IMG/VR virus record: IMGVR_UViG_3300020438_000021
Span: 15,175-79,174 of that record
Length of the DNA stretch: 64,000 bases
Strand: one strand, 5' to 3'
Source: a virus
The notes beneath the pieces are model-generated. The model saw nothing but the letters and a program-made list of their open reading frames with translations, did not search any database and had not been told where the DNA came from. The translations under genes were made by a program, and so were the position numbers. Positions 13,364-60,320 of this stretch are shown one piece after another. Every line of letters starts with the position of its first letter. The first letter of the stretch is position 1.

Positions 13364-13570
13364 ATGAAAATGAAATTGATAATACAAGATGACACAGGAC
13401 ACACGGAAATGGAAGTAAACGTAGCAGGTCTCATGGAGCAGATAAACGACCACCCTAACCATTGGGTAGTTGTCGATGAGACAGTAATATTCAGCGAGAA
13501 CATCGCTGATGTTGATTGGGAAACAGTCAATGAAGTTAAACTGATGGAAGAAGTCGTAGGCGGCTACTGA
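13364..13570 (+). CDS. Ubiquitin-like (beta-grasp, SAMP/ThiS-like) protein ending ...VVGG-Y
   Basis: 68 aa; strand-strand-helix-strand pattern (KLIIQD / TEMEV / helix / WVVVD / EVKLM) and a di-Gly followed by one residue; AGGAGG RBS; E1 and JAB genes nearby. Confidence 0.7.
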   Translation: MKMKLIIQDDTGHTEMEVNVAGLMEQINDHPNHWVVVDETVIFSENIADVDWETVNEVKLMEEVVGGY

Positions 13571-13611
13571 ATCGGTTTTAGATAGTCTTAGCAGTAGTAG
13601 TTCGACTGCCG

Positions 13612-13636
13612 GAAGGGTGCAACGCCCTTCTTTTTT
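13612..13636 (+). terminator. Hairpin plus T-tract after the Ubl gene
   Basis: GAAGGG-TGCAACG-CCCTTC-TTTTTT. Confidence 0.6.
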
Positions 13637-13658
13637 AACTCAACAAGGAGATGAATTT

Positions 13659-15548
13659 ATGGAAATACAACAAGAGATACTATCAGATATCACTGTGCAT
13701 ATGAAGTATGCAAAGTGGAAAGAAGCAGACCAGCGAAAGGAAACTTGGGAAGAGATTTGTCAGAGAAACAGACAGATGCATCTAGACTCTATCAGAAAGA
13801 GAGACCTACCCGAAGAAACAAAACAGACAATTTACGAGAAGATTCACGACACTTATGATAACTATGTTATCCCAAAGAAGGTACTACCTTCAATGAGGTC
13901 GATGCAGTTTGCAGGTAAGCCGATTGAACTGTCACCAAACAGGGTATACAATTGTGCATACATGCCTATCGACCACTACTTGTCTTTCTCAGAAGCAATG
14001 TTTCTATTGCTAGGAGGAACAGGTGTTGGCTACTCAGTGCAGAGGCATCATGTAGACCAGTTGCCTGAGATTAGGTTGCCCAACCCAAAGAGAACTTACA
14101 GACATCTAGTTGCAGACTCCATCGAAGGATGGGCAGATGCAGTCAAGGTTCTGTTTGAGTCTTACATTGGTAAGAGAGCAACGACAGTTAGATTCGACTA
14201 TTCAGATGTCAGGCCAAAGGGAAGTCCACTGAAGACCAGTGGAGGGAAAGCACCCGGCCCACAACCTCTGAAAGAATGTCTAGTGAAGGTCGAAGGTATT
14301 CTCGCTAACAAGAACAACGGCGACAAACTAACCACATTAGAAGCACACGATATCGTTTGCTATATTGCAGATGCAGTATTGGCAGGTGGTATTCGCAGAG
14401 CAGCACTAATCAGTCTGTTCAGTGCAGATGACGATGATATGATAACATCTAAGTCAGGACACTTTTGGGAGAAGAACCCACAGAGAGCAAGAGCAAACAA
14501 CTCAGTGGTTCTACTACGACACAGAATCAAGAGGGACTTCTTCAACAATCTATGGAAGCGAGTTCAAGATTCAGGTTCAGGTGAACCCGGATTTTATTTC
14601 AGCAACGATAAGGATTGGGGAACTAACCCTTGCTGTGAAATAGCACTCAGACCGTATCAGTTCTGTAACTTAACAGAAGTGAATGTGTCTGATGTGTCTA
14701 GTCAGTCCGACCTTAACAAGAGAGTAGAACATGCTACGTTCTTAGGAACACTGCAAGCATCCTACACTGACTTCCACTATCTAAGGGAAGTTTGGAAGAA
14801 GACATCTGAGAAAGATGCTCTGCTTGGTGTGTCAATGACTGGGATAGCAAGTGGTAGAGTTCTAGACTTAGATATGGAGTCTGCTGCAAACAAAGCAAGA
14901 AGCACGAATGAGTTCTTCGCTAATGCATTGGGTATCAATACCGCAGCGAGGATAACTTGTGTCAAACCTGCTGGAACTACCAGTCTAGTTATGGGAACAT
15001 CATCAGGTATTCACGCTTGGTGGTCTGAGTATTACATCAGGAGAATTAGGGTGCTAAAGACAGAAGCAATCTACAACTATCTGATAACCAAGTTCCCTGA
15101 TTTAGTGGAGGATGACTACCACAATCCGAATCAGGCTATCATCTCCATACCTCAGAAGACTCCCGATGGGACTTCGATAACAAGAGATGAATCAGCATTG
15201 GAGATGTTGGAGAGAGTGAAGAAAGTATCAGTCGATTGGGTTGTAACAGGACACAATCGAGGTGTCAACACTCACAATGTTTCTGCAACTGTCAACATCC
15301 GTGAGGATGAATGGGATGATGTAAGGAACTGGATGTGGAAGAACAGAGACTTCTACAATGGTCTATCTGTTCTACCGTTCGATGGTGGTGTCTACAAGCA
15401 AGCACCTCACGAACCGATAAGCAAGAAGCAATACGAAACTATGCTCAGACTTCTGACTGAAATCAATTTGACAGAAGTAGTCGAGTTAGAAGACAACACC
15501 GACTTGCAAGGAGAACTTGCTTGTGCAGGTGGAGTCTGTGAAATATGA
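13659..15548 (+). CDS. nrdJ: Class II (adenosylcobalamin-dependent) ribonucleotide reductase
   Basis: YNCA, GGIRRAALI, TNPCCEI, FCNLTE, VKPAGT, C-terminal CAGGVCEI; start revised to ATG 13659 after GGAGATGA. Confidence 0.95.
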   Translation: MEIQQEILSDITVHMKYAKWKEADQRKETWEEICQRNRQMHLDSIRKRDLPEETKQTIYEKIHDTYDNYVIPKKVLPSMRSMQFAGKPIELSPNRVYNCAYMPIDHYLSFSEAMFLLLGGTGVGYSVQRHHVDQLPEIRLPNPKRTYRHLVADSIEGWADAVKVLFESYIGKRATTVRFDYSDVRPKGSPLKTSGGKAPGPQPLKECLVKVEGILANKNNGDKLTTLEAHDIVCYIADAVLAGGIRRAALISLFSADDDDMITSKSGHFWEKNPQRARANNSVVLLRHRIKRDFFNNLWKRVQDSGSGEPGFYFSNDKDWGTNPCCEIALRPYQFCNLTEVNVSDVSSQSDLNKRVEHATFLGTLQASYTDFHYLREVWKKTSEKDALLGVSMTGIASGRVLDLDMESAANKARSTNEFFANALGINTAARITCVKPAGTTSLVMGTSSGIHAWWSEYYIRRIRVLKTEAIYNYLITKFPDLVEDDYHNPNQAIISIPQKTPDGTSITRDESALEMLERVKKVSVDWVVTGHNRGVNTHNVSATVNIREDEWDDVRNWMWKNRDFYNGLSVLPFDGGVYKQAPHEPISKKQYETMLRLLTEINLTEVVELEDNTDLQGELACAGGVCEI

Positions 15549-15844
15549 ATAGGGAACAAGTCCTAGCAATAGAAAGCGATGTCATCGATAGGATGGCTAA
15601 CGCTGGTGCGAAGGAAAGTCTCTCTAACTTATACAAGAGGACTAGGGAAGATGGGAGGAAAACCCCATCTACTCTAGTTCTCAACAGAATCAGATATTAT
15701 ATTCGGTTAGGTTATACCGATTTATCGACAGAGGAATTAGAGTCTCTGTATAATAAGAAACTATACTATGAAAGAAATGGTGATGATAATGAAAATAAAA
15801 ATGGAACTACCAAGAATAAGAAGCGACAGGGAAAGGACTACTGA
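15545..15844 (+). CDS. Hypothetical protein
   Basis: ATGA-coupled ORF. Confidence 0.65.
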   Translation: MNREQVLAIESDVIDRMANAGAKESLSNLYKRTREDGRKTPSTLVLNRIRYYIRLGYTDLSTEELESLYNKKLYYERNGDDNENKNGTTKNKKRQGKDY

Positions 15845-17009
15845 AACAAGTTCATTTCTTTGTAAGACCAATAGATACCACAGGCATCTAACTTCAAGGA
15901 ACGTTAATCGCTATGGTGAAATATACATCAGGATAACTAACAGAGATAGTCTATCAAAGAAGAAGTTTCATGAGAACGCTTATTGGAACACGTTTGCGAA
16001 GCATATGTATGATATATTCGTGCAGACTAATGAAAACAGTAAGTCCGATGAGAGGACATGGATAACATTCCGATACCCGAATGGTGAGGCTTCAGTCATA
16101 CTACGAAAGACTGGTAGCACTATCTACATGAATGGTGTGAAGAAGAACCAAGTCGATGTGTCTATGGCTCTTGCCAAGATTATTGCCTATGGTTCTATGA
16201 CTAGATGTGCAGATACGATGGAGTCATATATTGACAGGAACGTTACTTACTCTGCGAACATACTGTATGCATTACAGAACAGAACGCCTTATTGGATGTT
16301 CTCTGAAGGCACTCAGTATAATGTCAAGATTAACACTAATCTAATAAGCAGGGAAGAAGTGGCATTTGAGATTTCAAAGAACATTTGGGGTTCGTTGCCT
16401 ATCGAGGAAGCAAACACATTCATCGACTGTTACAGGAACAAAGCACAGAGGTCAAAGAAATGGGCTAACATCAGCCCTTCTAATTTGTGGTTCAATATGT
16501 TTGGCTCTCATGCCACTGAGTCAGAAGAGGCTTTGATGAAAGCGTGGTTGATGCAGAACAGAACTGATTGGATTGTGGAAGAGAGAGCATTCACCTTACT
16601 GAAAGGAATGGATAAGAAAGAGCAATATACATTAGTTGACTTAAAAAAGCCACCTTTCTCTAATCTAAGATTAGAAGGCAAATCTAAAAACTATCATTTT
16701 GCCATGCATATTAAAGGACAGTTGGGAGATTGGCTGTGTTATCCTAATAACAACCAATCAGGAACACAAAGATGTAAGTTGGTGTTCCTCACTTCTCTTA
16801 ATGAGTTTCAAGGTCCATTCTGTGTTGATGATGTCAATGGAAGAAATGTAATGGGAGACCAAATATCAACGAGGTCAACCCTCGTCTACAATGACACCGT
16901 GGCGACTAAGATTGTCAGGACTCTAACTGATGTCAAGGCAACTAACTTCAGAGTTCCCGATGCAACGTTAAAGGCTGCTAGATTCACGGAGGACATAACA
17001 TGGAGATAG
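15768..17009 (+). CDS. Hypothetical protein; C-terminal region is a candidate divergent E2 (UBC-like) domain
   Basis: MHIKGQLG...KLVFLT-SLNEFQ-GPFCVD loosely matches E2 IxGP...KVxFxT...GxICLD; no HPN motif. The CDS is solid, the E2 call is inference. Confidence 0.35.
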   Translation: MKEMVMIMKIKMELPRIRSDRERTTETSSFLCKTNRYHRHLTSRNVNRYGEIYIRITNRDSLSKKKFHENAYWNTFAKHMYDIFVQTNENSKSDERTWITFRYPNGEASVILRKTGSTIYMNGVKKNQVDVSMALAKIIAYGSMTRCADTMESYIDRNVTYSANILYALQNRTPYWMFSEGTQYNVKINTNLISREEVAFEISKNIWGSLPIEEANTFIDCYRNKAQRSKKWANISPSNLWFNMFGSHATESEEALMKAWLMQNRTDWIVEERAFTLLKGMDKKEQYTLVDLKKPPFSNLRLEGKSKNYHFAMHIKGQLGDWLCYPNNNQSGTQRCKLVFLTSLNEFQGPFCVDDVNGRNVMGDQISTRSTLVYNDTVATKIVRTLTDVKATNFRVPDATLKAARFTEDITWR

Positions 17010-17902
17010 TCATGGCATGTCCTGAATGTGGAGAGCATGATAGTTTCTTTGATGATGTGCTAGGTGAGAATGTATGCAATGGTTGTGGGTTGGTTCAAGT
17101 TATCAGGCCGTTTGAGGAAACCACATCAATAATAAAGGATGGTAATCAAACACATGAGCCAACGAGAAGGTTAGGTTCTCTAATCATGGAGACAAAATCC
17201 AACTATAATCATAATCAGATGGTTAGAATGAAGAAGCACAACCTGTATGCGGCTGCGTTGTCTGAGGCAGATAACAGGACTATCGTTTTATCTCAGATGA
17301 TTCTATCTAACTATCAAGTCAGTTCCTCTATCAAGAAGAAGGTAGAGGAATACCTTCGTTCTCTGAATATTGAGCATGTGTTTAGAGGTGCTTCTGTTGA
17401 ACACAGAGCAGCATCCTTGACCTTCTTCATATTGAAGGAAAGCAAAGTGCCTATGAACATAAGAGAGCATAGTAGATACTCGATGGTTGAGAGGAAGTAT
17501 ATCTCACGTTGGGGTAAGAGAGTAGCAAGGCACTTCAGGAAGTCATATGTATTCACACAAGAGAATGCTATGAGAACGGCATCATCCATCTTAGATAGAT
17601 TGGATGAGATACCCACAGGATATCGAATGGAAGCGATGAGCATGATTCAGTTCTTGGAGACCTTCTACCAAGAGCAGCATTTGAGATTCTCACCGAACAA
17701 GGTTGTTGCTGGATTGTGGGTCGCAGGAAGAATGCAGAGAAAATACAGAGTAACTCAAGAAAGTCTAGTGAAGGCTTCGGGTAACACAACATCAGCAATG
17801 GGGTTGAGAGAACAGGTGAGAGAGATGCAGAATATGTTCGGTCTATCGAAAGAAGACCTATACAGCCTATCTGTGTCTGATTTTGTATCAGGAGCGTATT
17901 AA
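17000..17902 (+). CDS. tfb: Transcription factor B (TFB/TFIIB) homolog
   Basis: N-terminal zinc ribbon CPECG...GENVCNGCGLV then two cyclin-like repeats (RGASVEHRAA; SPNKVVAGLWVA..VTQESL). Confidence 0.85.
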   Translation: MEIVMACPECGEHDSFFDDVLGENVCNGCGLVQVIRPFEETTSIIKDGNQTHEPTRRLGSLIMETKSNYNHNQMVRMKKHNLYAAALSEADNRTIVLSQMILSNYQVSSSIKKKVEEYLRSLNIEHVFRGASVEHRAASLTFFILKESKVPMNIREHSRYSMVERKYISRWGKRVARHFRKSYVFTQENAMRTASSILDRLDEIPTGYRMEAMSMIQFLETFYQEQHLRFSPNKVVAGLWVAGRMQRKYRVTQESLVKASGNTTSAMGLREQVREMQNMFGLSKEDLYSLSVSDFVSGAY

Positions 17903-18146
17903 GATGGAAGAGTTAATTGAAACACTAAAGAGAATGCAATACCACTTCAGTAAGTTCATTGAAGAGTATGAGAATCTACCACAGTTGAAGAACGTTGTCA
18001 GGAGAACAGTGCTAGAAGACGCAATATCTGTTGTCGGAGCGACAATGGATGGAATAACAAATGAGATAGTTGATGCTTGGCATCATTATCAACAACAAAT
18101 GATAGACAACAATGTAATAGATATAGGTGATGAAAATGATGAATAG
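17883..18146 (+). CDS. Hypothetical helical protein
   Basis: ORF between TFB and E1; likely start at MEELIE. Confidence 0.65.
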   Translation: MYQERIKMEELIETLKRMQYHFSKFIEEYENLPQLKNVVRRTVLEDAISVVGATMDGITNEIVDAWHHYQQQMIDNNVIDIGDENDE

Positions 18147-18729
18147 AAGAATAATGATAATCGGAGCAGGTGGAATTGGTAGTTTCCTAACACAATTCCT
18201 TCAGAGACTAGGATATAGAATAACAGTGTTTGATGATGATGGTGTTGAGAGGAAGAACATCGGATATCAGAACTTCAGTGTTAATGATATAGGAGAGAAC
18301 AAAGCAAGTATTCTAGCAGACAGAATATGGGACACATCCTTTCGTGGCACAGTCAACGATGAGCCTTTCAAGGTTCTAACAGCAAAGCAGTTACAGGGCT
18401 ACAACTTGGTTGTGTGTTGTGCAGATAATCTTGCTGTAAGGCGTTTATTGTATCAGCAAGGGTTTGGTGCAGATGCCAAGTTGAAGTGGCTAGACCTGCG
18501 AGCGCAGGGCAGGAATGGGGTATTGGTATCCTATCTAGCAGACCCTTCTATGAAGAGACTTGCAGATGGTGCTGATGGTTCATTCTCATGTCAAGCACAG
18601 TCTTGGGATGGGACTGCTAAGGATATTGATTGCATGAATATCGTAATTGCTGCAACAGCAGCACAATGGATACAGAAGTGGTTCAACGATAACAACGATG
18701 TCAAAGACATGATGGTGTTGAACATATGA
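18127..18729 (+). CDS. ThiF/MoeB/E1-like adenylyltransferase
   Basis: IIGAGGIGS nucleotide-binding loop, DDDGVERKNIGYQ, GENKA, CADNLAVR, WLDLR, candidate catalytic FSC. Confidence 0.9.
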   Translation: MMKMMNRRIMIIGAGGIGSFLTQFLQRLGYRITVFDDDGVERKNIGYQNFSVNDIGENKASILADRIWDTSFRGTVNDEPFKVLTAKQLQGYNLVVCCADNLAVRRLLYQQGFGADAKLKWLDLRAQGRNGVLVSYLADPSMKRLADGADGSFSCQAQSWDGTAKDIDCMNIVIAATAAQWIQKWFNDNNDVKDMMVLNI

Positions 18730-18893
18730 AGAAATGTGACTGTGCAGAATGTCCCTGTCACTATCCGCTTAAGACCTTCTTTGGAGAATCGAGCAGTGCA
18801 GGTATGTTTCTGCCACTGAAAGATGCAACAGTAGTTTGTGGTAGATGTAAGCAGAACCTATCATGCAAGAAATGTAGAGGTGAAGATGAATGA
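18726..18893 (+). CDS. 55-aa Cys-rich zinc-binding microprotein coupled to E1 (not in ORF track)
   Basis: MKKCDCAECPCH...CGRCKQNLSCKKCRGEDE, 8 Cys; ATGA overlap with the E1 stop. Confidence 0.65.
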   Translation: MKKCDCAECPCHYPLKTFFGESSSAGMFLPLKDATVVCGRCKQNLSCKKCRGEDE

Positions 18894-18954
18894 ATTGTGA
18901 TAATTGTGGAATGAAAATAAATGAATTAAGAATAAAGACAGATGAATGTTGTAG

Positions 18955-19200
18955 ATGGGTGGTGATGAAATGAGAGCGAGTTCAAAGATACATGTTGAGT
19001 ATGAAGTCCTGAAGTATATTATGGACAGGATAGACTTAACAGAGTTAGAAGAGAGGATGTGTCCTTCGGGAGACAAAGTAGCAGAGAAGAGATTCAAGGA
19101 TGGTGCTGACACAGTATCTAACTTGGTTAATAATCTGATAGTCAGGAGACTACACAGGTTGCCTAACACACATCCTGCCTACAAGGAGAAGGCAGAATGA
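18955..19200 (+). CDS. Hypothetical protein
   Basis: GGTGA RBS; likely start at MRASSK. Confidence 0.7.
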   Translation: MGGDEMRASSKIHVEYEVLKYIMDRIDLTELEERMCPSGDKVAEKRFKDGADTVSNLVNNLIVRRLHRLPNTHPAYKEKAE

Positions 19201-19496
19201 TTCACTTCCGAATCTTAGACAAAACTCTCTGTGGTGCTGACTACAAAGAGCCTAGTGAGAAAGCAGCGAAAGATGGTAGGATTTGTGATGACTGCATCCA
19301 AGTGATGTGGAAGGAACAATACAGAAGAAACGTTCTCAGAGTAAAGCAGCCTACACAACAAAAGGTCAGTTTAACCGAGAAATGGGAAAAGGCTTGGGAA
19401 GAAACTAACAAGGAAGAGGTTGTAGTCGAAGAACCTCGATTGTCTCCACCTAGAGCAATCAAATCGCTTCGACATTATATGAAGGTGAAAGCATGA
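19197..19496 (+). CDS. Hypothetical protein with H..C..CxxC zinc motif
   Basis: ATGA-coupled. Confidence 0.7.
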   Translation: MIHFRILDKTLCGADYKEPSEKAAKDGRICDDCIQVMWKEQYRRNVLRVKQPTQQKVSLTEKWEKAWEETNKEEVVVEEPRLSPPRAIKSLRHYMKVKA

Positions 19497-19735
19497 CAAA
19501 GGAAGATGCAAATATAGATGACATAAGCGAAGAAGACATAGGCCGGATGTTGACCATTATATCAACAGATGGATACTACAAACAGGCGATGATTGTAAAG
19601 GTCGTTTGCCCTGTTTGTGGCGAAGAGTTCTTGGGAACTAAGAGACATGCTGGTGGATTCATAGCAGGACACAGAGCATATCATGAGTTTGAGAACGAGC
19701 AGGATATGAGAGTAAACCAAATGGGAGGAATATAA
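19493..19735 (+). CDS. C2H2-type zinc-finger protein
   Basis: CPVCGEEF...GHRAYH. Confidence 0.7.
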   Translation: MTKEDANIDDISEEDIGRMLTIISTDGYYKQAMIVKVVCPVCGEEFLGTKRHAGGFIAGHRAYHEFENEQDMRVNQMGGI

Positions 19736-19737
19736 TA

Positions 19738-20289
19738 ATGAAAACAAATGAAACAGAATATGAAAATGGAATAATAGAAGGATTGGAAGTAAAGGATGAG
19801 AATTGGAAGGAGGATATTAGAACTGTATTTAACAATATAGAGTTCAACTATCCTTTCCCTGACCCACAGACAGAGGCATTCTACACAGTGATATGGAACA
19901 AGTCTCTTGAGGCGTTTGATTCGCCAAGAGAAGTACAGGTAATCGTAGATGCGAAAGACGACTTGTATATGAGTGTAGGAACTTTCGGATTTGTGAGTTT
20001 CAAGAATCAAGGTGAACAACTAGATGGAATGAAAACCCCCTTGAAATGTTGGATACACACACATCCATTCGGTCAGGCTTTCTTCAGTGGAACTGATTGG
20101 AAAACAATCAAGTCATGGAGAGGTATGATGGAAAGTGCAACAGTTCTTGGAGATAACCAGTTCATTGCATATGACCCAAAGACCGAGATAGCGAAGAAAG
20201 TTCACTATGGTATTTACAGACAAGAGCCTGTTGAGAAGCCTGAGTGGGTAAAGGCAGCAGAAGATGTATTGGATGGTGAAGAGGAATGA
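19738..20289 (+). CDS. JAB/MPN+ (JAMM) zinc metalloprotease, Ubl-processing/deconjugating
   Basis: Upstream catalytic Glu (REVQV) and complete JAMM motif WIHTHPFGQAFFSGTD. Confidence 0.9.
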   Translation: MKTNETEYENGIIEGLEVKDENWKEDIRTVFNNIEFNYPFPDPQTEAFYTVIWNKSLEAFDSPREVQVIVDAKDDLYMSVGTFGFVSFKNQGEQLDGMKTPLKCWIHTHPFGQAFFSGTDWKTIKSWRGMMESATVLGDNQFIAYDPKTEIAKKVHYGIYRQEPVEKPEWVKAAEDVLDGEEE

Positions 20290-20480: not shown

Positions 20481-20815
20481 ATACTTATTGTGGAATAGCA
20501 GATGCTCATGGATTAGAGTCTTTCATGGAATGTGAAGGGATAGGTTCTGCTCCTATGACTCTGACAATGAGGGCAAGTCTGAACAGGCAGAGACATGCTT
20601 TGGTGTATTGGGTTGAACTACCTGATGACAAAGCAGAGCAGATGCATGAGGCAATCAGGCAAGCACAAGCAGATGGAGATTGGCATGAGCCTCTTCTTCT
20701 ACTAAAGAATCCTGACTTCACGGAGACAGTATCCTTTGAGGATTCAATGAAGGGTAGTTGGGATATGATACCCAATGACAAGTTAGACCCATATTGGGGA
20801 AGTGATGATGAATGA
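20477..20815 (+). CDS. Hypothetical protein
   Basis: ATGA-coupled. Confidence 0.75.
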   Translation: MNTYCGIADAHGLESFMECEGIGSAPMTLTMRASLNRQRHALVYWVELPDDKAEQMHEAIRQAQADGDWHEPLLLLKNPDFTETVSFEDSMKGSWDMIPNDKLDPYWGSDDE

Positions 20816-30031: not shown

Positions 30032-30805
30032 ATGAAAATGAGAATAGAAATAAACAATAAAACACTAACAAACGCAATAGAAGATGTATGGATGAAAGGA
30101 AAGTATCACAATGGCGATTCAGCAAAGAACGGTCAATTAACCGATTATGCAATGCTTGAACTCGTTGAAGGTAATATACTGAATCTATACAATGCTGACA
30201 ATCAAACCATCTGTCGAGTGTCTGTACCTATAATTAGTCAGACAAACGAAGACAGCAATAATATGGTTGTAGTAGAGATAGACAAGATACTCAAGTATCT
30301 TAAGACATTCACAGGAGACAGGGTTCAGTTAGTTGCTGAAGACTTTATCCTATTACAAGACGAAGGCGGAGGAAAGAGGGCAAGTTTACCACTAGTTGTT
30401 AATCATCCTAATGCAGCGATGATTGCTAGGATTCAAGGCTACACTATTACTCCTGAGAATCCTGTCTTTAGTAGTGTGGTCTTTGAGTCTATCATTACCA
30501 CAGGCTCTAAGATACTAACAGATGCAATCAAGACTTGTGATGTTATCAACAACGCAAAGTATCTGTTAGATACAGACAATCAACACTTCACCATTTCAAG
30601 CAGGAAGTCTGACATTGACAAGGTAGATGTCATAGTTTCTACGCTATCTATGAATGGTGAATCAGCAACGGTAGAAGTAACTGGTCAGTTCCACAAGTTC
30701 TTTCGTGGTTCTGTTCCTGTGACTATCTACTTGAAAGACGAGTCTCCTGTTATATGGGCAGGAGAGGATAGAATACTAATCAAAGCCCCATACATTACAA
30801 GGTGA
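30032..30805 (+). CDS. pcn: DNA sliding clamp (PCNA-like)
   Basis: About 257 aa with a two-domain clamp pattern, C-terminal ILIKAPY, immediately upstream of PolB; GGAGG RBS. Confidence 0.75.
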   Translation: MKMRIEINNKTLTNAIEDVWMKGKYHNGDSAKNGQLTDYAMLELVEGNILNLYNADNQTICRVSVPIISQTNEDSNNMVVVEIDKILKYLKTFTGDRVQLVAEDFILLQDEGGGKRASLPLVVNHPNAAMIARIQGYTITPENPVFSSVVFESIITTGSKILTDAIKTCDVINNAKYLLDTDNQHFTISSRKSDIDKVDVIVSTLSMNGESATVEVTGQFHKFFRGSVPVTIYLKDESPVIWAGEDRILIKAPYITR

Positions 30806-32490
30806 TTACAATGATAATAGCAAACACGAAAGAAGGTATCTTCCTGAGATGGAGAGATGCAGAGAAGAAGGTTGTAGAGGAAGAGATTCCCTATGCCGAC
30901 TTCTCTCCATATTTCTTTGTGGAGGCTTCTAATATCGTTAATGTTGACGCTGAATCTAAGGTTTTCTTGAAAGAGGGATACCAACAGAAGGATAAGTTTC
31001 CTGCAACTCTAACTTATGAGAGCGGTGATTGGGTAAACCTTCAAGGTGATTCACTTGTGAAAGTGACATGGACACCACATAAAACTATGAAATCCGATGC
31101 TAGGAATGTAACGAGTAAAGTTAGAGCATACTATCATGATAGAGACATACCAACGTATGAAGCAGATGTTCAACACCATTATCGATATGCTGTCGATAGA
31201 TTGGATAAACTGAACGATTACAATCTAAGGAAATGGTATTGGGATATGGAATGGATGCAAGGTGGAGAGCATGATGGTGCGATTACTGCTATCGTTGTCT
31301 ACGATAACTATGATGATGAGTATTACACATTGACATGGCTTCCTGATTCAAGTGAGACTGAGAGAACAGTGCTTGAGAGATTCATGTTGATGCTAACTGA
31401 GAAAGACCCTGACATGCTTATCTCATGGTTCGGTTGGAAGTTCGATGTACCTAAGTTAATCGAGAGGCTACACACAAATGGAATCGACCCAAGACTACTA
31501 TCTCCTGTTCACGAAGTAACAGGTGTTGAATGGAATATCAAGGAGAGAAAGAGAATACTGAAGACTAAGCAGATAGAGAACTACTCTCCGATTGCTCAAC
31601 CAATCAAAGGTAGAATATGCGTACCTCTAGACTTGGCCTTTGAGAGACAATGGAATGATGCACAAAGAGGAACTTTACCTTCACTGTCACTAGACTATGT
31701 TTCAGAGTATGTCTTAGGTGAGAAGAAACTAGTGAGCGAGAAGTTTCCCGATAAGAATGAGTTCTTCAGGAGAGGCTGGCAAGAAGACAATGAGACATAT
31801 CTAGAGTATGCCTTGAAAGACGTTGAACTAATCAAGAGGATAGACGATGAGAACTTCACAACTGAAGCAATACTCTCGTTACAACGTTTACTGATTGCAC
31901 CGTTCGATGCTTGCTTCTACGCTAGTAACATGGGTGGAATATACTTCATGAGAAATGCCTCATGGAAAGCACCTACGGGCAGGAAAGGAGACAGGGTAGA
32001 GTATGATGGTGCGATGGTCTATGACCCGCTTAGTGAAGGCACAAATGGTCTTCATTTGGGTGTTGCAGCATTTGACTTCGCTGGTCTGTATCCAAGCATG
32101 ATGATTGCAAGAAATATCTCTTGGGAGACTAAGTCTCAGACACCTACACAATTTGGTGTAAATCTTAGAACACCAAAAGACTTCTCTAAGGTAGAAGACT
32201 ATGACATGAGATACTACAATAGTAATGAACTAGGGTTATTGCCAAAAGCAGTTCTAGAGTTGAAAGAACTGAGAAACGAATACAAAATGAAAATGAAAGA
32301 AAGTGAAAGTAAAAGTGAATATGTGAAATGGAACAACAACCAACTTGCAGTCAAGAGATTGATGGCATCCTTCTATGGTATCATTGCGTATCAGGGATTC
32401 GGTTGGGCTGATGTTGATTTAGCGGCAAGCATCACTGCTAGTGCTAGAGAAGCCATTCGCATTGCAGCATTCAAAGTGAGGGAACTATAA
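30802..32490 (+). CDS. polB: Family B DNA polymerase, N-terminal part (3'-5' exonuclease, motifs A and B)
   Basis: WDME, WFGWKFD, YALKD exonuclease motifs; DFAGLYPS; KRLMASFYG; ends before motif C. Confidence 0.95.
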   Translation: MITMIIANTKEGIFLRWRDAEKKVVEEEIPYADFSPYFFVEASNIVNVDAESKVFLKEGYQQKDKFPATLTYESGDWVNLQGDSLVKVTWTPHKTMKSDARNVTSKVRAYYHDRDIPTYEADVQHHYRYAVDRLDKLNDYNLRKWYWDMEWMQGGEHDGAITAIVVYDNYDDEYYTLTWLPDSSETERTVLERFMLMLTEKDPDMLISWFGWKFDVPKLIERLHTNGIDPRLLSPVHEVTGVEWNIKERKRILKTKQIENYSPIAQPIKGRICVPLDLAFERQWNDAQRGTLPSLSLDYVSEYVLGEKKLVSEKFPDKNEFFRRGWQEDNETYLEYALKDVELIKRIDDENFTTEAILSLQRLLIAPFDACFYASNMGGIYFMRNASWKAPTGRKGDRVEYDGAMVYDPLSEGTNGLHLGVAAFDFAGLYPSMMIARNISWETKSQTPTQFGVNLRTPKDFSKVEDYDMRYYNSNELGLLPKAVLELKELRNEYKMKMKESESKSEYVKWNNNQLAVKRLMASFYGIIAYQGFGWADVDLAASITASAREAIRIAAFKVREL

Positions 32491-32687: not shown

Positions 32688-32800
32688 ATATAGAAAAGTG
32701 GTCACAAGACAGATTTGCAACACTAGCATTGGCTAGAACAGTATTTGGCTTTCTAAAAGTCATAATTGCAGTAATTGTAGCAGTGGAGTTGGTATTATGA
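32684..32800 (+). CDS. 38-aa membrane peptide inserted in split polB (not in ORF track)
   Basis: MNIEKWSQDRFATLALARTVFGFLKVIIAVIVAVELVL; ATGA overlaps at both ends. Confidence 0.65.
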   Translation: MNIEKWSQDRFATLALARTVFGFLKVIIAVIVAVELVL

Positions 32801-33732
32801 AGGTAGTTTATGGACATACGGACTCGATTTACGTTGATATTGAAGACAACAGCATTGAAACTGCTGAAAAGGCGTTGAAAATACTGAATGAACATGTTAG
32901 AGAGGCATTTCCTAATGTAATGGGCTTGAAGGAACATCCTGTAACACTAGAGTTTGAGAAATACTTCAGAACTTTAGGTGTTGGAGCAACAAAAAATAGA
33001 AATGCAGGTCTAATTACTTGGAAAGATGGTAACTTCCTTGATGAAGAAGAGTTTGTGATGACAGGATTCACTGCAAAGAGGGTTTCTCTGACTAAACTAG
33101 CCAAAGATGTTCAATTGTCAGTGCTTAACATGTGGGTTGAGGGTAAATCGGAGCAAGAAATAGTCTCTTATCTGAATGATAAGTACAATTCTGTCATGCA
33201 AGGTAAGATTCCACTATCAGATGTTCTACAAAGAAGTAGATTCCGTGAAGAAAGGTTCAGATTAGTATGCAAGGTATGCAATCCAAAGGCTAGATTCGAC
33301 AAAGGATGGAGTAACAAGTCAGTTAGTGTGTTTGACTTGATGCAACATGGTGGATGTATAGATGACATGGGTAGAGTAATGGAGCATTCTAACTTCGTTA
33401 CTGTTGGAGGCAAGCGACCAACATTTGGTTCGGGAGTTGAGGGAGTGCTGTTTAGCCATTCACAGGGATATGAAAAGATAGAGGATACCTATCTTTATCT
33501 TAGAATCAAGAATTGCAGGGAGCATTACATGCATCCTGTAACTAGGGAGTTCACAACTCCCAATTATGTATCTAGATTAACTGCCGATGAGTTTGATGAC
33601 TTTGACCCTGATTGGTCACATTATGCAGAATCGGTAGTTAAGAAAGCAGAACCTATCTTCAGAGCAATGGGATGGAACACAATGCAGATAAAAAGAGACA
33701 CACAGCAATCCTCTTTGGAGGAGTGGTTTTGA
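32797..33732 (+). CDS. polB: Family B DNA polymerase, C-terminal part (motif C, thumb, PIP box)
   Basis: MKVVYGHTDSIYV, LEFEK, C-terminal QQSSLEEWF. Confidence 0.95.
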   Translation: MKVVYGHTDSIYVDIEDNSIETAEKALKILNEHVREAFPNVMGLKEHPVTLEFEKYFRTLGVGATKNRNAGLITWKDGNFLDEEEFVMTGFTAKRVSLTKLAKDVQLSVLNMWVEGKSEQEIVSYLNDKYNSVMQGKIPLSDVLQRSRFREERFRLVCKVCNPKARFDKGWSNKSVSVFDLMQHGGCIDDMGRVMEHSNFVTVGGKRPTFGSGVEGVLFSHSQGYEKIEDTYLYLRIKNCREHYMHPVTREFTTPNYVSRLTADEFDDFDPDWSHYAESVVKKAEPIFRAMGWNTMQIKRDTQQSSLEEWF

Positions 33733-40411: not shown

Positions 40412-43400
40412 TCATGTCTCCCTGAATGTTATTGCAGCCCTAACAGGACCAACCTGCGTATCAGTGTATCCTGACAATCCGGTTGCTCTCAAGTTGAATG
40501 TATCACCTGCTGAGTATGTAGTCCCGTTCCCACTGAAGGATGTAAATTCCTTTGAGAACTGATTACCACCACTTCCACTTGCATTGTATGTGAATGTGGT
40601 AGTTGATGCAGACCTGTTTTTGAATACTGTAATCGTCTGATTGGAGGAGTTCGTTTCACTTCCGTTATTCCCAAAGGACAGATGTATGCTGACTAACTCA
40701 CAATCTTTTGGTATAGGGAAACCAATATCAGAGCCTGAAGAACTCCGAGTTGTGTTTTGTTCTGCGTCACCATAGCCCAAGAAGAATCCATTTGCATTTC
40801 CTGCTCCTGCCGTTGATGTAACGTAAAAGTCTCCTTCGGCAGCATTTATGACAAACTCCCTATCAGCAGGAGTAGATAACTTCCTGATGCTGATTTGCGA
40901 TTGGTTAACCTCAGTTGAGATGTTTGTATTCTGCTGTGCATCTATTCTTATCCTGATGTAATCGTTAGCAGTATGCTGATAGATGAAAGAGGCAGAAAGA
41001 CCTGAACCACCGGAAGCCTCTCTTGTGTAGACCTGTGACCTTGACTGTGTGATAGTTGTGAGGTTAGAAGAAAAGGAATCGTTGCTCGCAGTCTGAGCGA
41101 AGGCGAATATCCTTGTTCTGTCAGCCCCAGTGCTACCATCATCATTAATGGGAAGGCTGTAAGAAACCTCATAGTATCCAGCATCAACGATTCTGATATG
41201 TCCATCAGCACCTTTCGATGCGTTGCCTGAAGGGTCTAATACCTCAGTATCGAATGGTATGGTTCGCTCTGTTAGGTCTACATCGGTGTTTCCACTGTCC
41301 ATATACACAACAGGCTTCGACCCGTCACTCTCTGCACTACTTCCTCCACCTGCGTTTGCATCTACATACGCCTTGACAGATTGTTGTGTCGGTACTCTTG
41401 AAGCGGAGTTTGAAGCCATGTTGTCTTCGTCAATTGCTGCAAGGACTGAGTTACCTGCTACTAGCAAATCGTTGAAGTGTCCTTCTGACCATCGCTTTCC
41501 ATCTTGTCCAAGTGCAACAACTCCATTACCACCCGGTCTGATTATAGTATCTTGAATTATGAACTGAACAGTATTGTCTATCGCAAAAGACATGTTATTA
41601 TCAGTTGCAAAATCAATGTAGGCATCGGATGCTCCATAACCTACTTTCAACGAGGAGTTCAGAATAGAAGTAATGCCTGTTTGTGCTGCCGTTACTGCCA
41701 TATCATTTGCATTAGCGGTTATACCAGTTCCACCAATTACATTGAGTGTAGCAGAACCACTTGATGCTCCACCAGTTAAACCAGTACCTGCTACAACTGC
41801 GGTAATATCACCACTACCACCTGCACTAGCAACAAGGTCAATTGTACCATCAGCATCCTGATACGTTGCAGTAATGTTAGTCTCAGTGTTACTAGAGAAC
41901 ATCGCACCTACGATATCTTGCACTTGTTCAGTAGTAAGATTAGTATTTGTATCAGTAGTATAGCCATAAGCCTCAATCTTCTCCTTGATTGCTTGAGAAG
42001 TCATTAGGGAAGTGTCATTATCGGAGAAAGAAGTGTTGATTGTAGTGACTCTAGCACCAGTTCCAACCTGCAAACCTGAATCGCTTATGTTCATCCTAGC
42101 AGTTGAACCAGTGTTGAAGGACTGAGTATCTGTACCAAATGTGATAGTGTTATTCGTATCTCCGGTGTGGACAATACCAGTTGAAGTTGAAATGAATCCA
42201 TTTACATCTAGTGGGAAAGCAGGACTCGTAGTGCCTATTCCGATATTACCACCATCAGTTAATATTGACAGACGTGCTATCGAATTATCTGTATAATCTT
42301 CTGCGGCATTGTAACTGGACATGGGGCTGCTTGTTCCTGCGGATAATTCTAACCTGCCTCTTCCATACGCATCAGTAGCGACAAACCTAACGCCAGCACC
42401 TATCCTACTACCTGTCTGTCCCGATGAGTCCTCGTTATTGTAGAACAACAGAGAGCCTATCTTGTCATCAGCAGCATAATCAGAATCTCTAGCATTGAGT
42501 AAGATAGTGGGGTTATTGGTAGCAGTGACATCAAGTAACGCTCTAGGAGTAGTAGTACCTATTCCGAGCCTACCCACATTTGTTAGTCTCATTTTTTCTG
42601 TTGCGGCTTCTGATGTTGCCGTCTTGAAAACTAAAGCCGCAGTGTTAGCAGTATCGGTAAAGTTTGCTTCTGCAACCGCAGAAACGGAAGCGGCTACTAA
42701 TCTCGCATCTCCATCTGTGCCGTCCCCTTCACTACCTGCTGCCCACTCTATAACACCCAAATCATCTGTATCGCTTACTGTGGTGTCACCCGTAGACAAT
42801 CTGATTATCGGGTCTGCTGACGCACTTCCATAGAACGTAGTTCTCATTGAGCCATCGAATTGCATTCTATCTGAGTTTGCTGATACGATGAAGAAGTCGT
42901 CACTGCTTGTTGTTCCTATCTTTCCGCCCCAAGTTTCTGCCCACATCTTTACAGTAGCATTACTTGAGCCATTGGTATTGTAAACTTGAACAAAGGTAGG
43001 GGCTAATGTTGCCAAATCTGTTGAATCATTAATAAATAGTGAACCACTAAGTTGTATGTCACCTGCTACATCTAATTCTTTAGCAGGAGTTGAAGTTCCT
43101 ATTCCGAGTTTACCATCATTGAGGAGATACATTTTCGTTGTACCTCCTGCTTGGAAGAAGATATCATCATCAGCATGTAGAGTCAAGTCATCACTTGCAG
43201 CCAATGTGACATCAGTTCCAGTCGAGTTCCAACCCAAGAAGGATGTTGCATCATCTACACTCAGGTATACTTTACCTGCTGTGCCAGTGACTCCTACTTC
43301 TAAGTCGCTTCCTACTATGACCTTGTTATTGACAGCATCCAAGTCAAGCATCTTGACATGAGCAGAACCACTGTGGGCATACAACTCCAAGTTGTCAGAA

Positions 43401-46400
43401 CCGTTGTATGTCTTGATGTATCCCGGTCCTGAGCCATAGCCGAGGAATAGACCATTCATGGTGGCAAAGCCATCAGCAGTAAGTAATGCTGAACCTGCTT
43501 GGTTAACATTTCCAACGCTTATCGAACCAGTGTATTTCACGTTGTCATCGGTCTGTGTTCCGAATACTATGTCTCCACCTAAGTCTGAGTTAAGTGCAGC
43601 GACAACCTCTGCATCACTCAGTTGTGTATTTGTGTTAGTTATCGCTCCTGTTGCTGCACCAAGGTATCCCCATTGTGCTGCTGATATCGTTGTAGAACCT
43701 ATGTTCTCTAACTGCGCTCCCTCTGCTGCTGTTAAGTTGGATATCTCAGTGACCTTGCTTGCTGTTATAGTAGGAATGTTAGATGCTGACAAACCACCAT
43801 CGAGTATGTTTATCTCAGCAAGTGAGGCAGTTATTCCTAGATTCGTTAATGCATTACCTTGTTGAGTTGAAGTTAATCCTTGATTGCTGACATCTACTCT
43901 CAATCTGTTTCCTAGAGAAGTTGCAGTTGTGGTTGAGAATGATGCATCATCTCCTAACGCTGCTGCAAGTTCATTTAGAGTGTTAAGTGCTGAAGGTGCT
44001 GAAGCAACGATTCCTGCTACCTCTGCATCAACGTATGCCTTGATAGATTGCTGGCTCGCTGCGGCTGTTGCACTATTGGAACTCATGTTGTCTTGGTCAA
44101 GAAGAGTCAATTGTGTATTTGCTGTCATATCGTCTACAACAAAATTGATTCTACCGTTAGTATCATCATAGGAGACTCCTATTCTTGTTTCTGTTCCAAC
44201 AAGCATACCACCTACAATGTCTTGAACCTGCTCAGTAGAGAGTTGTGTGTTAGTATTCGCCGTCATATCATCTACGACTAAATCGATAGTCCCGTCACCA
44301 TCTTGATATGTGGCTGATACTCTCGTTTCGGTATTGCTACTAAACATAGCACCAACTATATCTTGTACCTGTTCTGTGCTTAATTGAGTATCTGTGTTAG
44401 TAATTGCTCCCGATGCCGCACCTAAGTAGCCCCATTGTGCTGCGGAGATTGTTGTTGAGCCTATATTTTCTAATTGCGCCCCTTCATCTGCTGTTAAGTT
44501 ACTTAATTCAGTTACTTGTGATATAGCAATTGTTTTGTTGCTTAAGGTCTGAGAACCCGATAGTGTAGCAACTGTATTATCAATAGCAACTGTTACTGTA
44601 TCTGTATTACCAACTACTGTATCTATTCCTGTTCCACCCGCAATATCTAATGTATTACCATGTGCGATAGTTTGGTTAGTACCGGAATCTCCTGTTAAGG
44701 TAAAAGTAGTTAATTGATTTGTATTAGTATTAGCAGTCATATCATCCACTACCAAATCGATAGTGCCATCTCCGTCTTGGTAGGTAGCACTTATCCTAGT
44801 CTCAGTATTTGAACCGAACATCGCTCCTACAATGTCCTGCACCTGTTCTGTTGAGAGTTGAGTATTGTCATTAGCAGTCATATCGTCTACTACCAAATCA
44901 ATTGTTCCGTCACCATCCTGATACGTTGCACTTATTCTTGTCTCGGTGTTTGAACCGAACATTCCTCCGACTATATCTTGAACCTGTTCTGTGGTAAGTT
45001 GAGTGTTAGTGTTGGCAGAATTAAGAGTTATCGAATCCCCGCTTGTAGTAATTGTCATCCCACCAGCCGCCACCAGCGTTAGAGTATCAGTTGTTGAGTC
45101 AGCCGCAGCAGTCGTTTGCCCACTTACTGCCACATTGCTGAAGGCATTCTGATTGTTCTCTCCACCTGCACCTGCTGCTACAAGAGTGAAGCCTCCACTT
45201 GTATCATCATAACTTAGTAAATAATTATCAGTAGAAGAGTTTGCAGTATTTGTTGTACTTATTTTGGCTGCTGTGATAGCGTCATCAGCAATTCTTGCAG
45301 TTGCGAAAGTTCCCGAAGTTATTTTGCTTGCAGCAAGACTTGGTATTCTAGCAGTTCCTAGTGTTCCACTTGTTATTTTGGAAGACGCTAAGTTTGGTAT
45401 ATCACTTGCTGCAAGCCCATCGTCTAGTATGTTTATTTCTGCTAAGGAAGCGGTAATACCTAGATTTGTTAGGGCATTTCCTTGTTGGGTTGAAGTAAGT
45501 CCTTGATTACTAACGTCAACTCTTAATCTGTTTCCTAACGATGTAGCGGTTGTTGTGGAGAAAGAAGCATCGTCACCAAGAGCAGCAGCGAGTTCGTTCA
45601 AGGTATTGAGAGCAGATGGTGATGAGTCTACTAGTCCTGCAACTTCGCTATCGACATATGCCTTTATTGACTGTTGACTAGCAGCAGCAGTTGCACTATT
45701 AGTTGCAAAATTATCTTCGTCAAGTAATGTCAATTGAGTGTTTGCTGTCATGTCATCTACTACGAAATTAATCCTACCATTTGTATCATCATAAGTAACG
45801 CCGATTCTTGTTTCAGTACCTACTAACATTGCACCTACAATATCTTGAACTTGTTCTGTGGATAATTGTGTATTCGTATCAGCAGTCATGTCGTCAACGA
45901 CTAAATCTATTGTTCCATCTCCATCTTCGTATGTTGCAGATACCCTAGTCTCCGTGTTGCTTGTGAACATAGCACCGACAATATCCTGAACTTCTTCAGT
46001 TGTTAGTTGGGTATTGGTATCTGTGGCAGCAAGTGTTAGTGTTCCCGCCGCATCATCATACGTTTTGGTTATGTTAGAACCTGCTACGATTACACCTGCT
46101 ACAAAGTCCTCGACTTGCTCTTGGGTTAGTTGGGTATTCGTATCTGTTGATACGAAGTTTAACTTACCACCTGTATCATCATAAGTCACTGCAATATTGG
46201 TTTCTGTTCCTCCATCTACCATTGCCCCAATTATGTCTTGAACGTTTTCAGTAGTGAGAATAGTATCAGTGGTGAATGTGAGATTGCTCTGCATGTATGA
46301 TTGCAGTACACTGACATCCATTCTCTTCAATGTACCAGCATCACTGAGAACCAATTCATCAGTAGAATCAAGCCCACTAGTCAATGCTGTTTGTCCTGTA

Positions 46401-60319: not shown

Positions 60320-60320
60320 T

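Follow-up and report, generated by a model that had tools for sequence, protein, structure and literature searches.

We found that a widespread ocean virus of Marine Group II archaea carries its own predicted ubiquitin-like kit, consisting of a small tag ending in GG, an activating enzyme (E1), a trimming protease (JAB) and a probable carrier enzyme. This kit is related to one in the host lineage and was not described in the papers we could search. The genes lie on the + strand of the window, the 64,000-nucleotide stretch analyzed here (positions 15,175 to 79,174 of IMG/VR record IMGVR_UViG_3300020438_000021), which is a magrovirus-type genome, that is, a tailed dsDNA virus of Marine Group II (Ca. 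Poseidoniales). The sequence-only reading had noted a 68-aa protein ending in VVGGY, a ThiF/E1 protein and a JAMM protease around a viral TFB gene, and all three open reading frames were confirmed. Its interpretation, a virus-encoded ubiquitin-like conjugation system, was supported by three tests that it had set for itself, concerning the fold of the small protein, conservation of the GG and whether the E1 and JAB genes occur independently of the small protein. All of the evidence presented here is computational.

The putative Ubl precursor (13364..13570) is 68 aa long and is predicted to be a beta-grasp, with an AF2 model of pLDDT 85 and bbabbab topology. All of the top 50 Foldseek hits in PDB are ubiquitin, ISG15, SUMO or NEDD8 (E about 7e-3), and VIA-align gives Z of about 5 to Fubi, MOCS2A, ThiS, ISG15 and TtuB. 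No hit was found in Pfam, NCBIfam, PHROG or PADLOC. All 45 distinct viral homologues end in an invariant GG followed by 0-3 residues, with 20 different tails (a single Tyr here). The Gly-Gly codons vary synonymously, with 11 different codon pairs, which shows selection at the protein level.

The E1-like adenylating enzyme (18127..18729) is a short ThiF-family protein of 200 aa translated from a GTG start, matching Pfam ThiF at 67.3 bits against a cut-off of 28.1. As the sequence-only reading had stated, it has no zinc CxxC pair and carries a WLDL motif with a downstream SC; it also has no rhodanese domain. W121-L-D-L-R and S154-C155 are invariant in 25 homologues, as are GAGGIGS, D36, K59 and the D100-N101 pair, and C155, within SFSC155Q, is the candidate catalytic cysteine. 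The best PDB hits by profile are the Cap2 E1 domain, MoeB and Uba1, with MccB also among the E1 hits, and NCBIfam hits include ThiF and MoeB. An invariant Tyr47 (His in hosts) replaces the Arg of the NLxRQ motif, an Arg that binds ATP phosphates in MoeB, and the protein also lacks the N-terminal helices of MoeB, so its adenylation chemistry may differ.

The JAB/JAMM (MPN+) metalloprotease (19738..20289), of 183 aa, scores below the Pfam cut-off (Prok-JAB, 17.9 against 25). Even so, E65 and H107-x-H109-x7-S117-x-x-D120 are invariant in 26 homologues, and a profile of the family hits the JAMM deubiquitinases AMSH-LP, AMSH and Sst2 and an Rpn11-like protein (E 8e-5 to 2e-3). JGI names some homologues "proteasome lid subunit RPN8/RPN11." We presume that it matures the Ubl and possibly also deconjugates it.

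The candidate E2 is part of a 413-aa protein (15768..17009; AF2 pLDDT 86.5) that public sources annotate only as "hypothetical protein" and whose stop overlaps the start of the TFB-like gene at 17000. Its N-terminal ~260 aa have no assigned function, and its C-terminal domain (residues ~264-400; 16557..16967) is the candidate E2-like (UBC/RWD-fold) carrier. This domain has an invariant Cys352 in a GP[FI]C[IV]D motif followed by GDQ..RA...ND....T, and its predicted secondary structure runs a-b-b-b-b-(b)-Cys-a-a-a. In a wide VIA-align search the top hit was Ubc9 (Z 5.3, 97 aa aligned), and about 35 of 50 rows were E2, RWD or UEV proteins covering residues 264-400. The E2 assignment rests on this weak structural match, in a range where middling Z values are common: sequence searches found no E2 family, Foldseek, Pfam, a PDB profile search and the ESM Atlas gave no support, and the HPN motif is absent. 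The candidate did gain support from the host lineage, where homologous domains lie next to Ubl-E1-JAB cassettes and are fused behind Ubl domains (hhalign probability 94%, E 1e-7).

To ask whether these genes work together, we examined their co-occurrence in viruses and in host genomes. The Ubl, the E1, the 413-aa protein and the JAB are present in 53 of 53 related IMG/VR loci with enough flank; 11 of these loci lack the RNR, so the Ubl is not tied to it. Co-occurrence within the viruses does not discriminate, however, because the whole block is collinear and also holds the TFB-like gene, the RNR and other core genes. In Poseidoniales genomes the homologues form compact cassettes of two to four genes. 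These cassettes show the fusions Ubl-Ubl-E1, E1-JAB and Ubl-(E2-like domain), as well as tandem poly-Ubl genes of 2-3 units each ending in GG. The JAB family was found in 88 of 151 Poseidoniales genomes and, at E<=1e-8, in none of the other orders in a 201-genome sample of the phylum. One host JAB is 47% identical to the viral one, which hints at exchange.

We also looked for signs of a sulfur-transfer role. The 79-kb virus record has no PP-loop TtuA/NcsA, rhodanese, MoaE or ThiG gene, and all five hosts checked have a separate canonical UbaA/MoeB-type E1 of about 300 bits elsewhere in the genome. For the conjugation reading, a predicted E1-Ubl complex gave only weak support, with an ipSAE of 0.46 against a best control of 0.00. 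The mark was reached by 58 of 80 solved complexes and 2 of 110 mismatched pairs, but at 0.60 or under it was reached by only 7 of those 80 and by both mismatches. The runs agree in at least 96% of their contacts and the partner's pLDDT is at least 83, but since E1-Ubl complexes have been solved, this pass may reflect the predictor's memory of them. Contigs from RNA libraries, identical to the window, cover the Ubl gene and parts of the other genes, a hint of expression for which DNA carry-over is not excluded.

Our best explanation, to which we give a probability of about 0.6, is that the virus encodes a self-contained Ubl-E1-(E2-like)-JAB protein-conjugation pathway. Sequence, structural models and comparison establish a beta-grasp Ubl made as a precursor with a variable cap after an invariant GG, a ThiF-type E1, a JAMM protease with a complete active-site motif, a fourth conserved protein whose C-terminal domain has an invariant Cys and a UBC-like predicted topology, and the evolutionary linkage of the four domains by fusion and adjacency in the host lineage. 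The mechanism, including conjugation to protein itself, is inferred without biochemical evidence. In this view, the JAB would trim the cap to expose GG, the E1 would adenylate the Ubl C-terminus, possibly forming a thioester at C155, and the Ubl would pass to Cys352 of the E2-like domain, whose ~260-aa N-terminal region may choose substrates. The Ubl would then be ligated to lysines of as yet unidentified viral or host proteins, and the JAB may also reverse the mark. As the system is a distant homologue of a Poseidoniales-specific cellular system, the virus either runs a parallel tagging pathway or plugs into the host's. The proposals of the sequence-only reading that the JAB removes the terminal Tyr and that the products are protein conjugates rather than thiocarboxylates remain inferences, and its suggested links to the TFB, to host defense or to virion proteins are unsupported. 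The TFB sits inside the block in every relative, but so do several unrelated core genes.

Among the alternatives, a sulfur-carrier system seems unlikely. Under this reading the Ubl would be thiocarboxylated after adenylation, as for ThiS, MoaD, TtuB, CysO or QbsE, and would donate sulfur to a host enzyme for tRNA thiolation or for cofactor or metabolite synthesis, with the JAB only uncapping the carrier or releasing the product. The small ThiF/MoeB type of the E1 is compatible with this reading, as are the lack of an E2 detectable by sequence and the appearance of MoaD, ThiS, TtuB and CysO among the Ubl fold matches at the same Z as ubiquitin-like proteins, and capped carriers trimmed by JAB proteins occur in such pathways (QbsE/QbsD, CysO/Mec+). 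However, the absence of client genes from the virus record and the separate canonical E1 of the hosts count against it, as does the existence of a fourth conserved partner with an invariant Cys, and tandem poly-Ubl genes and Ubl fusions to the Cys-bearing E2-like domain fit a modifier better than a carrier. Also unlikely, though slightly less so, is interference with the homologous host system, in which the viral copies would act mainly as decoys or erasers, for example by stripping host Ubl marks or titrating host components, so that a host pathway, possibly antiviral, is neutralized. The homologous system in Poseidoniales and the 47% identical host JAB are consistent with this idea; bacterial Ubl systems (Bil, type II CBASS) act in phage defense, and viruses often encode deubiquitinases. 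Yet the virus keeps all four parts with intact catalytic motifs in every relative examined, and the widespread host system sits, in the host L115, among housekeeping genes such as glycosyltransferases, Taw1 and a phosphate transporter rather than in a recognizable defense island. PADLOC recognizes only the E1 fold.

We consider it very unlikely that the E1 instead drives a C-terminal modification that is not protein tagging, in the manner of MccB or PaaA, converting the GG terminus into, for example, a nucleotide or amide adduct with the JAB and the Cys-domain acting as processing factors. The MccB hit, the invariant Tyr or His in the altered NLxRQ motif and a second small protein ending in GG-X next to the JAB could suggest this, but the substrate is predicted to be a folded beta-grasp with the classical flexible GG tail, and poly-Ubl arrays and a UBC-like partner point to conjugation. 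The second small protein (19493..19735), a Cys/His-rich, zinc-binding-like protein of 80 aa directly upstream of the JAB, is at most a possible accessory whose membership in the system is uncertain. It is present in 48 of 53 loci, and all 45 homologues end in GG plus I, A, Q, V or L, but 28 of 45 encode the GG as GGAGGA, a Shine-Dalgarno-like word 5-9 nt before the next start codon, so this GG may be a by-product of a ribosome-binding site. The protein is unrelated to the Ubl by hhalign and was not found in host loci. Least likely is that the genes are unrelated neighbors in a collinear core block: the viral synteny alone would allow this, but it is contradicted by the pairwise fusions and compact cassettes in cellular genomes, which link all the parts independently of that synteny.

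Several known systems resemble this one in part. SAMPylation in Haloferax volcanii (SAMP1-3, E1 UbaA, HvJAMM1) is likewise an archaeal system with a small beta-grasp modifier ending in GG, a ThiF-type E1 and a JAMM protease that uncaps and deconjugates. The viral E1, however, scores only 38.5 bits against the UbaA model, whose cut-off is 450, and lacks the zinc CxxC pairs, while the hosts keep a separate UbaA/MoeB-like E1. SAMPylation has no E2, whereas this system has a conserved Cys-bearing UBC-like partner, and SAMPs also serve as sulfur carriers, which nothing here shows. The bacterial E1-E2-Ubl-JAB operons (Bil, BilABCD; Bub systems; type II CBASS Cap2/Cap3) share the four-part list of Ubl, E1, E2 and JAB deubiquitinase. 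The Cap2 E1 domain is the best solved match to the viral E1 by profile, PADLOC E1-E2 and BilD models hit the E1, and a bacterial E1-E2-Ubl complex (8tyz) is among the fold matches of the Ubl. Those are cellular antiphage systems, whereas this one is a core gene set of a virus; the PADLOC hits cover only the E1 Rossmann part, the Ubl, JAB and E2-like protein match no Bil, Bub or Cap model, and here the E1 and E2 are separate proteins, with the E2-like domain behind the ~260-aa region. The PRTRC (ParB-related, ThiF-related cassette) of plasmids and mobile elements gives the best-scoring named E1 subfamily for both the viral and the host E1 (TIGR03736, PRTRC_ThiF, 60 and 55 bits) and is also carried by mobile elements, but the scores are far below the family cut-off of 144.75 and we found no ParB partner, so this is not a member.

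The ubiquitin operon of Caldiarchaeum subterraneum (Aigarchaeota; Ub, E1, E2, RING E3, Rpn11-like) is an archaeal operon with a complete modifier cascade, and its Rpn11-like protease (6fjv) is among the profile hits of the viral JAB. That system is eukaryote-like in sequence, with a bona fide ubiquitin, UBC and RING, whereas here the Ubl and the E2-like domain match no Pfam family, no RING was identified, and the system is specific to Poseidoniales and their viruses. JAB-trimmed sulfur carriers (QbsE/QbsD/QbsC of thioquinolobactin synthesis; CysO/Mec+/MoeZ) also pair a capped beta-grasp carrier with a ThiF-type E1 and a JAB protease that processes the C-terminus, but those E1s carry or recruit a rhodanese domain and sit next to biosynthetic client enzymes, neither of which is present here. 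The sequence-only reading knew of no characterized system of this kind in an archaeal virus, which holds only in part. None of the four papers on magroviruses and archaeal tailed viruses that we checked mentions this system, but pieces of Ubl pathways have been reported in mobile genetic elements, namely E1-like genes in Asgard viruses such as Nidhogg (10.1101/2021.07.29.454249) and JAMM deSAMPylases in Borgs (PMC12660748), and eukaryotic large DNA viruses carry ubiquitin and E2 genes. Those reports describe single components presumed to act on the host pathway, whereas here the tag, E1, protease and candidate E2 are all virus-encoded and conserved across the virus group. One such viral E2, ASFV I215L, appears among the fold matches of the E2-like domain.

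The window is part of a 79-kb linear virus record and encodes a family-B DNA polymerase, an RFC-like clamp loader, an ATP-dependent DNA ligase, nucleases and a class II ribonucleotide reductase (RNR). The polymerase is split into two ORFs separated by about 300 nt, the first (30802-32490) holding the exonuclease domain and the start of the polymerase domain and the second (32797-33732) holding the rest. The window also encodes a divergent TFB-like protein, with a TFIIB zinc ribbon at an E-value of 4e-6 (below the Pfam cut-off) and weak hits to the Pyrococcus TFB core. This gene content, together with dozens of collinear IMG/VR contigs of 50-100 kb, matches the magroviruses of Marine Group II (Ca. 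Poseidoniales) archaea (PMC5434244).

We confirmed the three ORFs that the sequence-only reading had proposed as a ubiquitin-like protein (Ubl), an E1 and a JAB protease, and its observation therefore held. The E1 is a firm member of the ThiF family (PF00899), scoring 67.3 bits against a Pfam cut-off of 28.1, with invariant G13-A-G-G-I-G-S, D36, K59, D100-N101, WLDLR and SFSC155Q motifs. As had been noted, the sequence contains no zinc-binding CxxC pair, and it scores only 38.5 bits against the model of the SAMP-activating E1 UbaA (NF047750), whose equivalog cut-off is 450. The best named hit is the PRTRC system ThiF (TIGR03736), but at 60.4 bits against a cut-off of 144.75 the viral protein is not a member of that family. 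The Arg of the NLxRQ motif, which binds ATP phosphates in MoeB, is replaced by an invariant Tyr47 in the viruses and by His in the host fusions described below, so the adenylation chemistry may be unusual. A catalytic Cys in the crossover region is needed for a thioester or acyl-disulfide. The candidate, C155, is invariant in the viruses and conserved as [ST]SCQ in the host fusions, and counting from a phmmer alignment it lies about where Cys187 of MoeB would fall.

The JAB scores below the Pfam Prok-JAB cut-off as a single sequence (17.9 against 25), but across 26 homologues the JAMM active-site residues E65, H107, H109, S117 and D120 are invariant, with exactly seven residues between H109 and S117. 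A profile of the family finds the JAMM deubiquitinases AMSH-LP (E 7.8e-5), AMSH (1.9e-4) and Sst2 (4.2e-4) and an archaeal Rpn11-like protein (6fjv, 1e-3), although only over a core of 33-46 residues. Beyond the sub-threshold Prok-JAB hit, Pfam, NCBIfam, PHROGs and PADLOC gave nothing usable for the JAB. Existing JGI automatic annotations name some homologues 'proteasome lid subunit RPN8/RPN11' and the E1 an adenylyltransferase, whereas the Ubl and the 413-aa protein encoded in the same block are only 'hypothetical protein'.

The small protein (13364-13570) has the features of a Ubl precursor. With a 20-sequence alignment, AlphaFold2 gave a confident bbabbab beta-grasp model (pLDDT 85) with strands at residues 3-9, 12-18, 33-37, 40-42 and 57-62 and helices at 20-29 and 44-49, while residues 66-68 have low confidence, consistent with a flexible tail. 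The 50 best Foldseek matches in PDB are all ubiquitin, ISG15, SUMO, NEDD8 and relatives, although with E-values of only about 7e-3, and an independent structural search with VIA-align lists beta-grasp modifiers and carriers, with Z scores of 5.5-4.2 to Fubi, MOCS2A, ThiS, ISG15, TtuB and SUMO. All 45 distinct viral homologues end in GG followed by zero to three residues, with 20 different tails and one protein that stops exactly at GG, and all host homologues but one also end in GG plus a tail or a fused domain. The two glycines are written with 11 different codon pairs, so the constraint is on the protein and not on the DNA. An invariant GG under a hypervariable cap is the classical signature of a processed Ubl. 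In the window's Ubl, which ends VVGG plus a terminal Tyr, the last Lys or Arg lies 8 residues before the end, so the tryptic remnant on a conjugated lysine would be the final 8 residues ending VVGG, whereas GluC would leave a short VVGG-type remnant. The protein belongs to the fold class but to no named sequence family, since Pfam, NCBIfam, PHROGs and PADLOC gave no hit. The family also has an invariant G-H-T motif (residues 12-14) and a D-H-P-T-H-W motif (residues 29-34), of which G-H-[TS] and the Trp are kept in host homologues; such His-rich conserved patches are unusual for ubiquitin-like proteins and could be a metal site or a partner-binding site.

Within the viruses, the Ubl, E1, 413-aa protein and JAB occur in 53 of 53 loci with enough flank, but the whole block is collinear, so this alone proves little. 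A specific link between the Ubl and the adjacent class II RNR was rejected because 11 of the 53 loci lack the RNR but keep the Ubl. The decisive evidence that the parts belong together comes from outside the viruses. A profile of the Ubl searched against 1.8 billion representative proteins found 129 relatives, including tandem, polyubiquitin-like proteins whose units each end in GG (three units in P0122, P0128 and P0129; two in P0132, P0138, P0143, P0145 and P0162), Ubl-Ubl-E1 and Ubl-E1 fusions whose E1 shares the WLDLR and [ST]SCQ motifs, and Ubl fused to an unknown domain of about 250-300 aa (P0136, P0152, P0169 and P0177). Searches of viral contigs with two of these metagenomic proteins, P0133 and P0122, found nothing, whereas a genome scan placed relatives of the Ubl-E1 fusions in Ca. 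Poseidoniales MAGs, where the next gene is a JAB of the viral family. Other Poseidoniales genomes have a Ubl followed by an E1-JAB fusion, or separate Ubl, E1 and JAB genes in a row. We considered whether the host loci were proviruses and rejected this, since no other window protein has a match in the host loci screened and the neighbors in one of them, L115, are ordinary cellular genes. The JAB family is present in 88 of 151 sampled Poseidoniales genomes and, at E<=1e-8, was found in none of the other orders in a 201-genome sample of the phylum. The triad is thus a lineage-specific host system that the viruses share, although identity between the viral and host parts is low (about 25-47%). 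One Poseidoniales genome carries two Ubl systems about 20 kb apart on a single contig (G106:C1). The first (locus L131, 14523-16983) has a JAB 47% identical to the viral one and a Ubl ending in FG instead of GG, and the second (locus L132, 16126-17694) is of the Ubl plus E1-JAB fusion type. This may reflect virus-host gene exchange. No other viral genes lie nearby.

A fourth part, the C-terminal domain of the 413-aa protein, is a candidate E2. Its family has an invariant Cys352 in a GP[FI]C[IV]D motif, followed by GDQ..RA...ND....T, and the Cys is invariant in 42 viral and host sequences. The full-length model is confident (pLDDT 86.5), and residues ~264-400 run helix, four to five strands, Cys, then three helices, which is the order of elements in the UBC fold. 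VIA-align ranks Ubc9 first (Z 5.3, rmsd 3.9, 97 residues aligned), and about 35 of its 50 rows are E2, RWD or UEV domains, all over this region; however, this is a weak match, as Z values under 8 can reflect a common arrangement. By linear offset within the aligned ranges, and without a per-residue alignment, Cys352 would fall within about three residues of the catalytic Cys of Ubc9, Ubc13 and UBE2S. Homologues of the domain are encoded next to host cassettes, in locus L117 directly upstream of the Ubl-E1 fusion, and the unknown domain fused behind Ubl in the metagenomic proteins is homologous to it (hhalign probability 94%, E 1e-7, with the Cys and the ND...TLR motif aligned). Against an E2 identity, there is no HPN motif, Foldseek against PDB returned only noise for the 413-aa model, no member of the domain family matches a Pfam E2 model at E<=1, a PDB profile search found no E2, the ESM Atlas gave no usable hit and holds no model, and Pfam, NCBIfam, PHROGs and PADLOC gave nothing for the 413-aa protein. 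A UQ_con search of the virus record also found nothing, but the control genomes gave no hit either, so it says little. We therefore regard this as a functionally linked, Cys-bearing, probably UBC-like domain, whose role as an E2 we put at roughly even odds.

Capped beta-grasp carriers with JAB trimming also exist in sulfur-transfer pathways, and the fold search cannot separate the two classes. Several points favor conjugation: the virus record has no rhodanese, PP-loop thiolase, MoaE or ThiG gene, all five hosts checked have a separate canonical UbaA/MoeB-like E1, poly-Ubl genes exist, and there is a Cys-bearing partner domain. Also in favor of conjugation, the nearest named or solved E1s are PRTRC ThiF and the conjugating Cap2, although both matches are weak and cover only the Rossmann half. 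A predicted E1-Ubl complex gave only weak support. Its ipSAE was 0.46 against a best control of 0.00, a mark reached by 58 of 80 solved complexes and 2 of 110 mismatches, but at 0.60 or under by only 7 of those 80 and by both mismatches. The runs agree in at least 96% of their contacts and the partner's pLDDT is at least 83, but because E1-Ubl complexes have been solved, the result may reflect memorization. The interpretation offered by the sequence-only reading, a virus-encoded protein-tagging pathway, is supported in its core, but nothing ties the system to the TFB-like gene beyond position, its start overlapping the stop of the gene for the 413-aa protein. All of these conclusions are computational: the sequence motifs, the predicted folds and the fusions and gene neighborhoods are what our analysis shows directly, whereas cap removal by the JAB, adenylation and thioester formation by the E1, the carrier role of Cys352 and conjugation to protein are inferred.

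As inferred here, the system works like the prokaryotic Ubl-E1-E2-JAB cassettes (Bil, Bub, PRTRC and the Caldiarchaeum ubiquitin operon) and like archaeal SAMPylation, but it fails the membership thresholds of every named family except the broad ThiF and JAMM classes. Among models of anti-phage Ubl systems (Bil, CBASS Cap2/Cap3, 6A-MBL), only the Rossmann half of the E1 matches, to E1-E2/Cap2 models (up to 45.6 bits) and BilD (E 9e-5), and the Ubl, the JAB and the 413-aa protein have no hit. Four papers on magroviruses and archaeal tailed viruses do not mention ThiF, JAB or ubiquitin, and literature searches on these components in magroviruses or Poseidoniales found no description of the system. 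The nearest precedents are E1-like genes in an Asgard virus and JAMM deSAMPylases in Borgs. What differs from these known systems is that an apparently complete Ubl pathway is encoded by a virus, with new sequence families for the tag and the carrier-like domain.

The furthest-reaching interpretation, to which we assign a probability of about 0.5, is that magroviruses, among the most abundant archaeal viruses of the surface ocean, carry a complete and autonomous E1-E2-Ubl-deubiquitinase cascade as core genes and use it to tag host or viral proteins during infection, alongside or against a homologous system confined to their Poseidoniales hosts. As far as we could find, this would be the first complete ubiquitin-like conjugation pathway encoded by a virus of prokaryotes, and it would define a new sequence family for each of the Ubl, the E2-like domain and the JAB. 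Ubiquitin-like conjugation in prokaryotes has recently become known as an antiviral weapon (Bil, CBASS) and as an archaeal modification system (SAMPs), whereas here the whole candidate toolkit sits on the virus side, conserved in every relative examined, in a globally abundant virus group. That suggests that protein tagging is part of how these viruses take over uncultivated Marine Group II archaea. The finding also exposes a previously unannotated Ubl system specific to Poseidoniales, in which the domain fusions predict the partners directly, so that a host-virus pair of homologous pathways can be compared. The parts are small and soluble-looking (68, 200, 183 and ~150 aa), making the chemistry accessible in vitro without cultivating the host, and they add divergent E1, E2-like and Ubl families to the record of how ubiquitin signaling evolved.

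We considered as a possible second Ubl an 80-aa Cys/His-rich protein (19493-19735; invariant C39, C42, H52, H60 and H64) encoded just upstream of the JAB, which ends in GG plus exactly one residue (I, A, Q, V or L) in all 45 distinct homologues. Comparison with the Ubl family by hhalign gave no relation, a PDB profile search gave nothing, the ESM Atlas returned only viral hypothetical proteins, and the family libraries gave nothing usable for this protein beyond a weak PADLOC hit to PDC-S64 (E 9e-4). In 28 of the 45 homologues the GG is encoded as GGAGGA, 5-9 nt before the next gene's start codon, so an embedded ribosome-binding site may explain much of the conservation, although a few GGTGGT variants keep Gly-Gly without that word; its place in the system remains uncertain. 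A similar explanation may apply to a wider pattern in the window, where 12 of 69 likely genes end in two or more acidic residues (for example at 20280-20289, 18137-18146, 18884-18893 and 20806-20815), while about 1.2 are expected from composition. The JAB ends in EEE in nearly all relatives, and as these genes often overlap the next start codon (ATGA), GAGGA-type ribosome-binding words read as Glu codons may account for the pattern. An 8-Cys, 55-aa ORF (18726-18893) that overlaps the E1 stop codon was not counted as a core part, because tblastn and an HMM built on its hits detect it only in the closest relatives (10 of 29 E1 loci); in more distant viruses the gene of the 80-aa protein abuts the E1 instead.

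Contigs from marine RNA libraries, identical to the window, cover the Ubl gene and parts of the other genes. These show presence only. DNA carry-over cannot be excluded, and the lack of cover in parts of the region carries no meaning. Contigs from one marine RNA-library sample (X21 and X22) show a joint that goes back 110 at the start of the JAB gene (19701-19810), which may be a local duplication variant or an assembly artefact. Elsewhere in the window, three consecutive giant ORFs of 2085, 2119 and 2322 aa (40412-46669, 46669-53028 and 53387-60355) fill about 20 kb of the minus strand.
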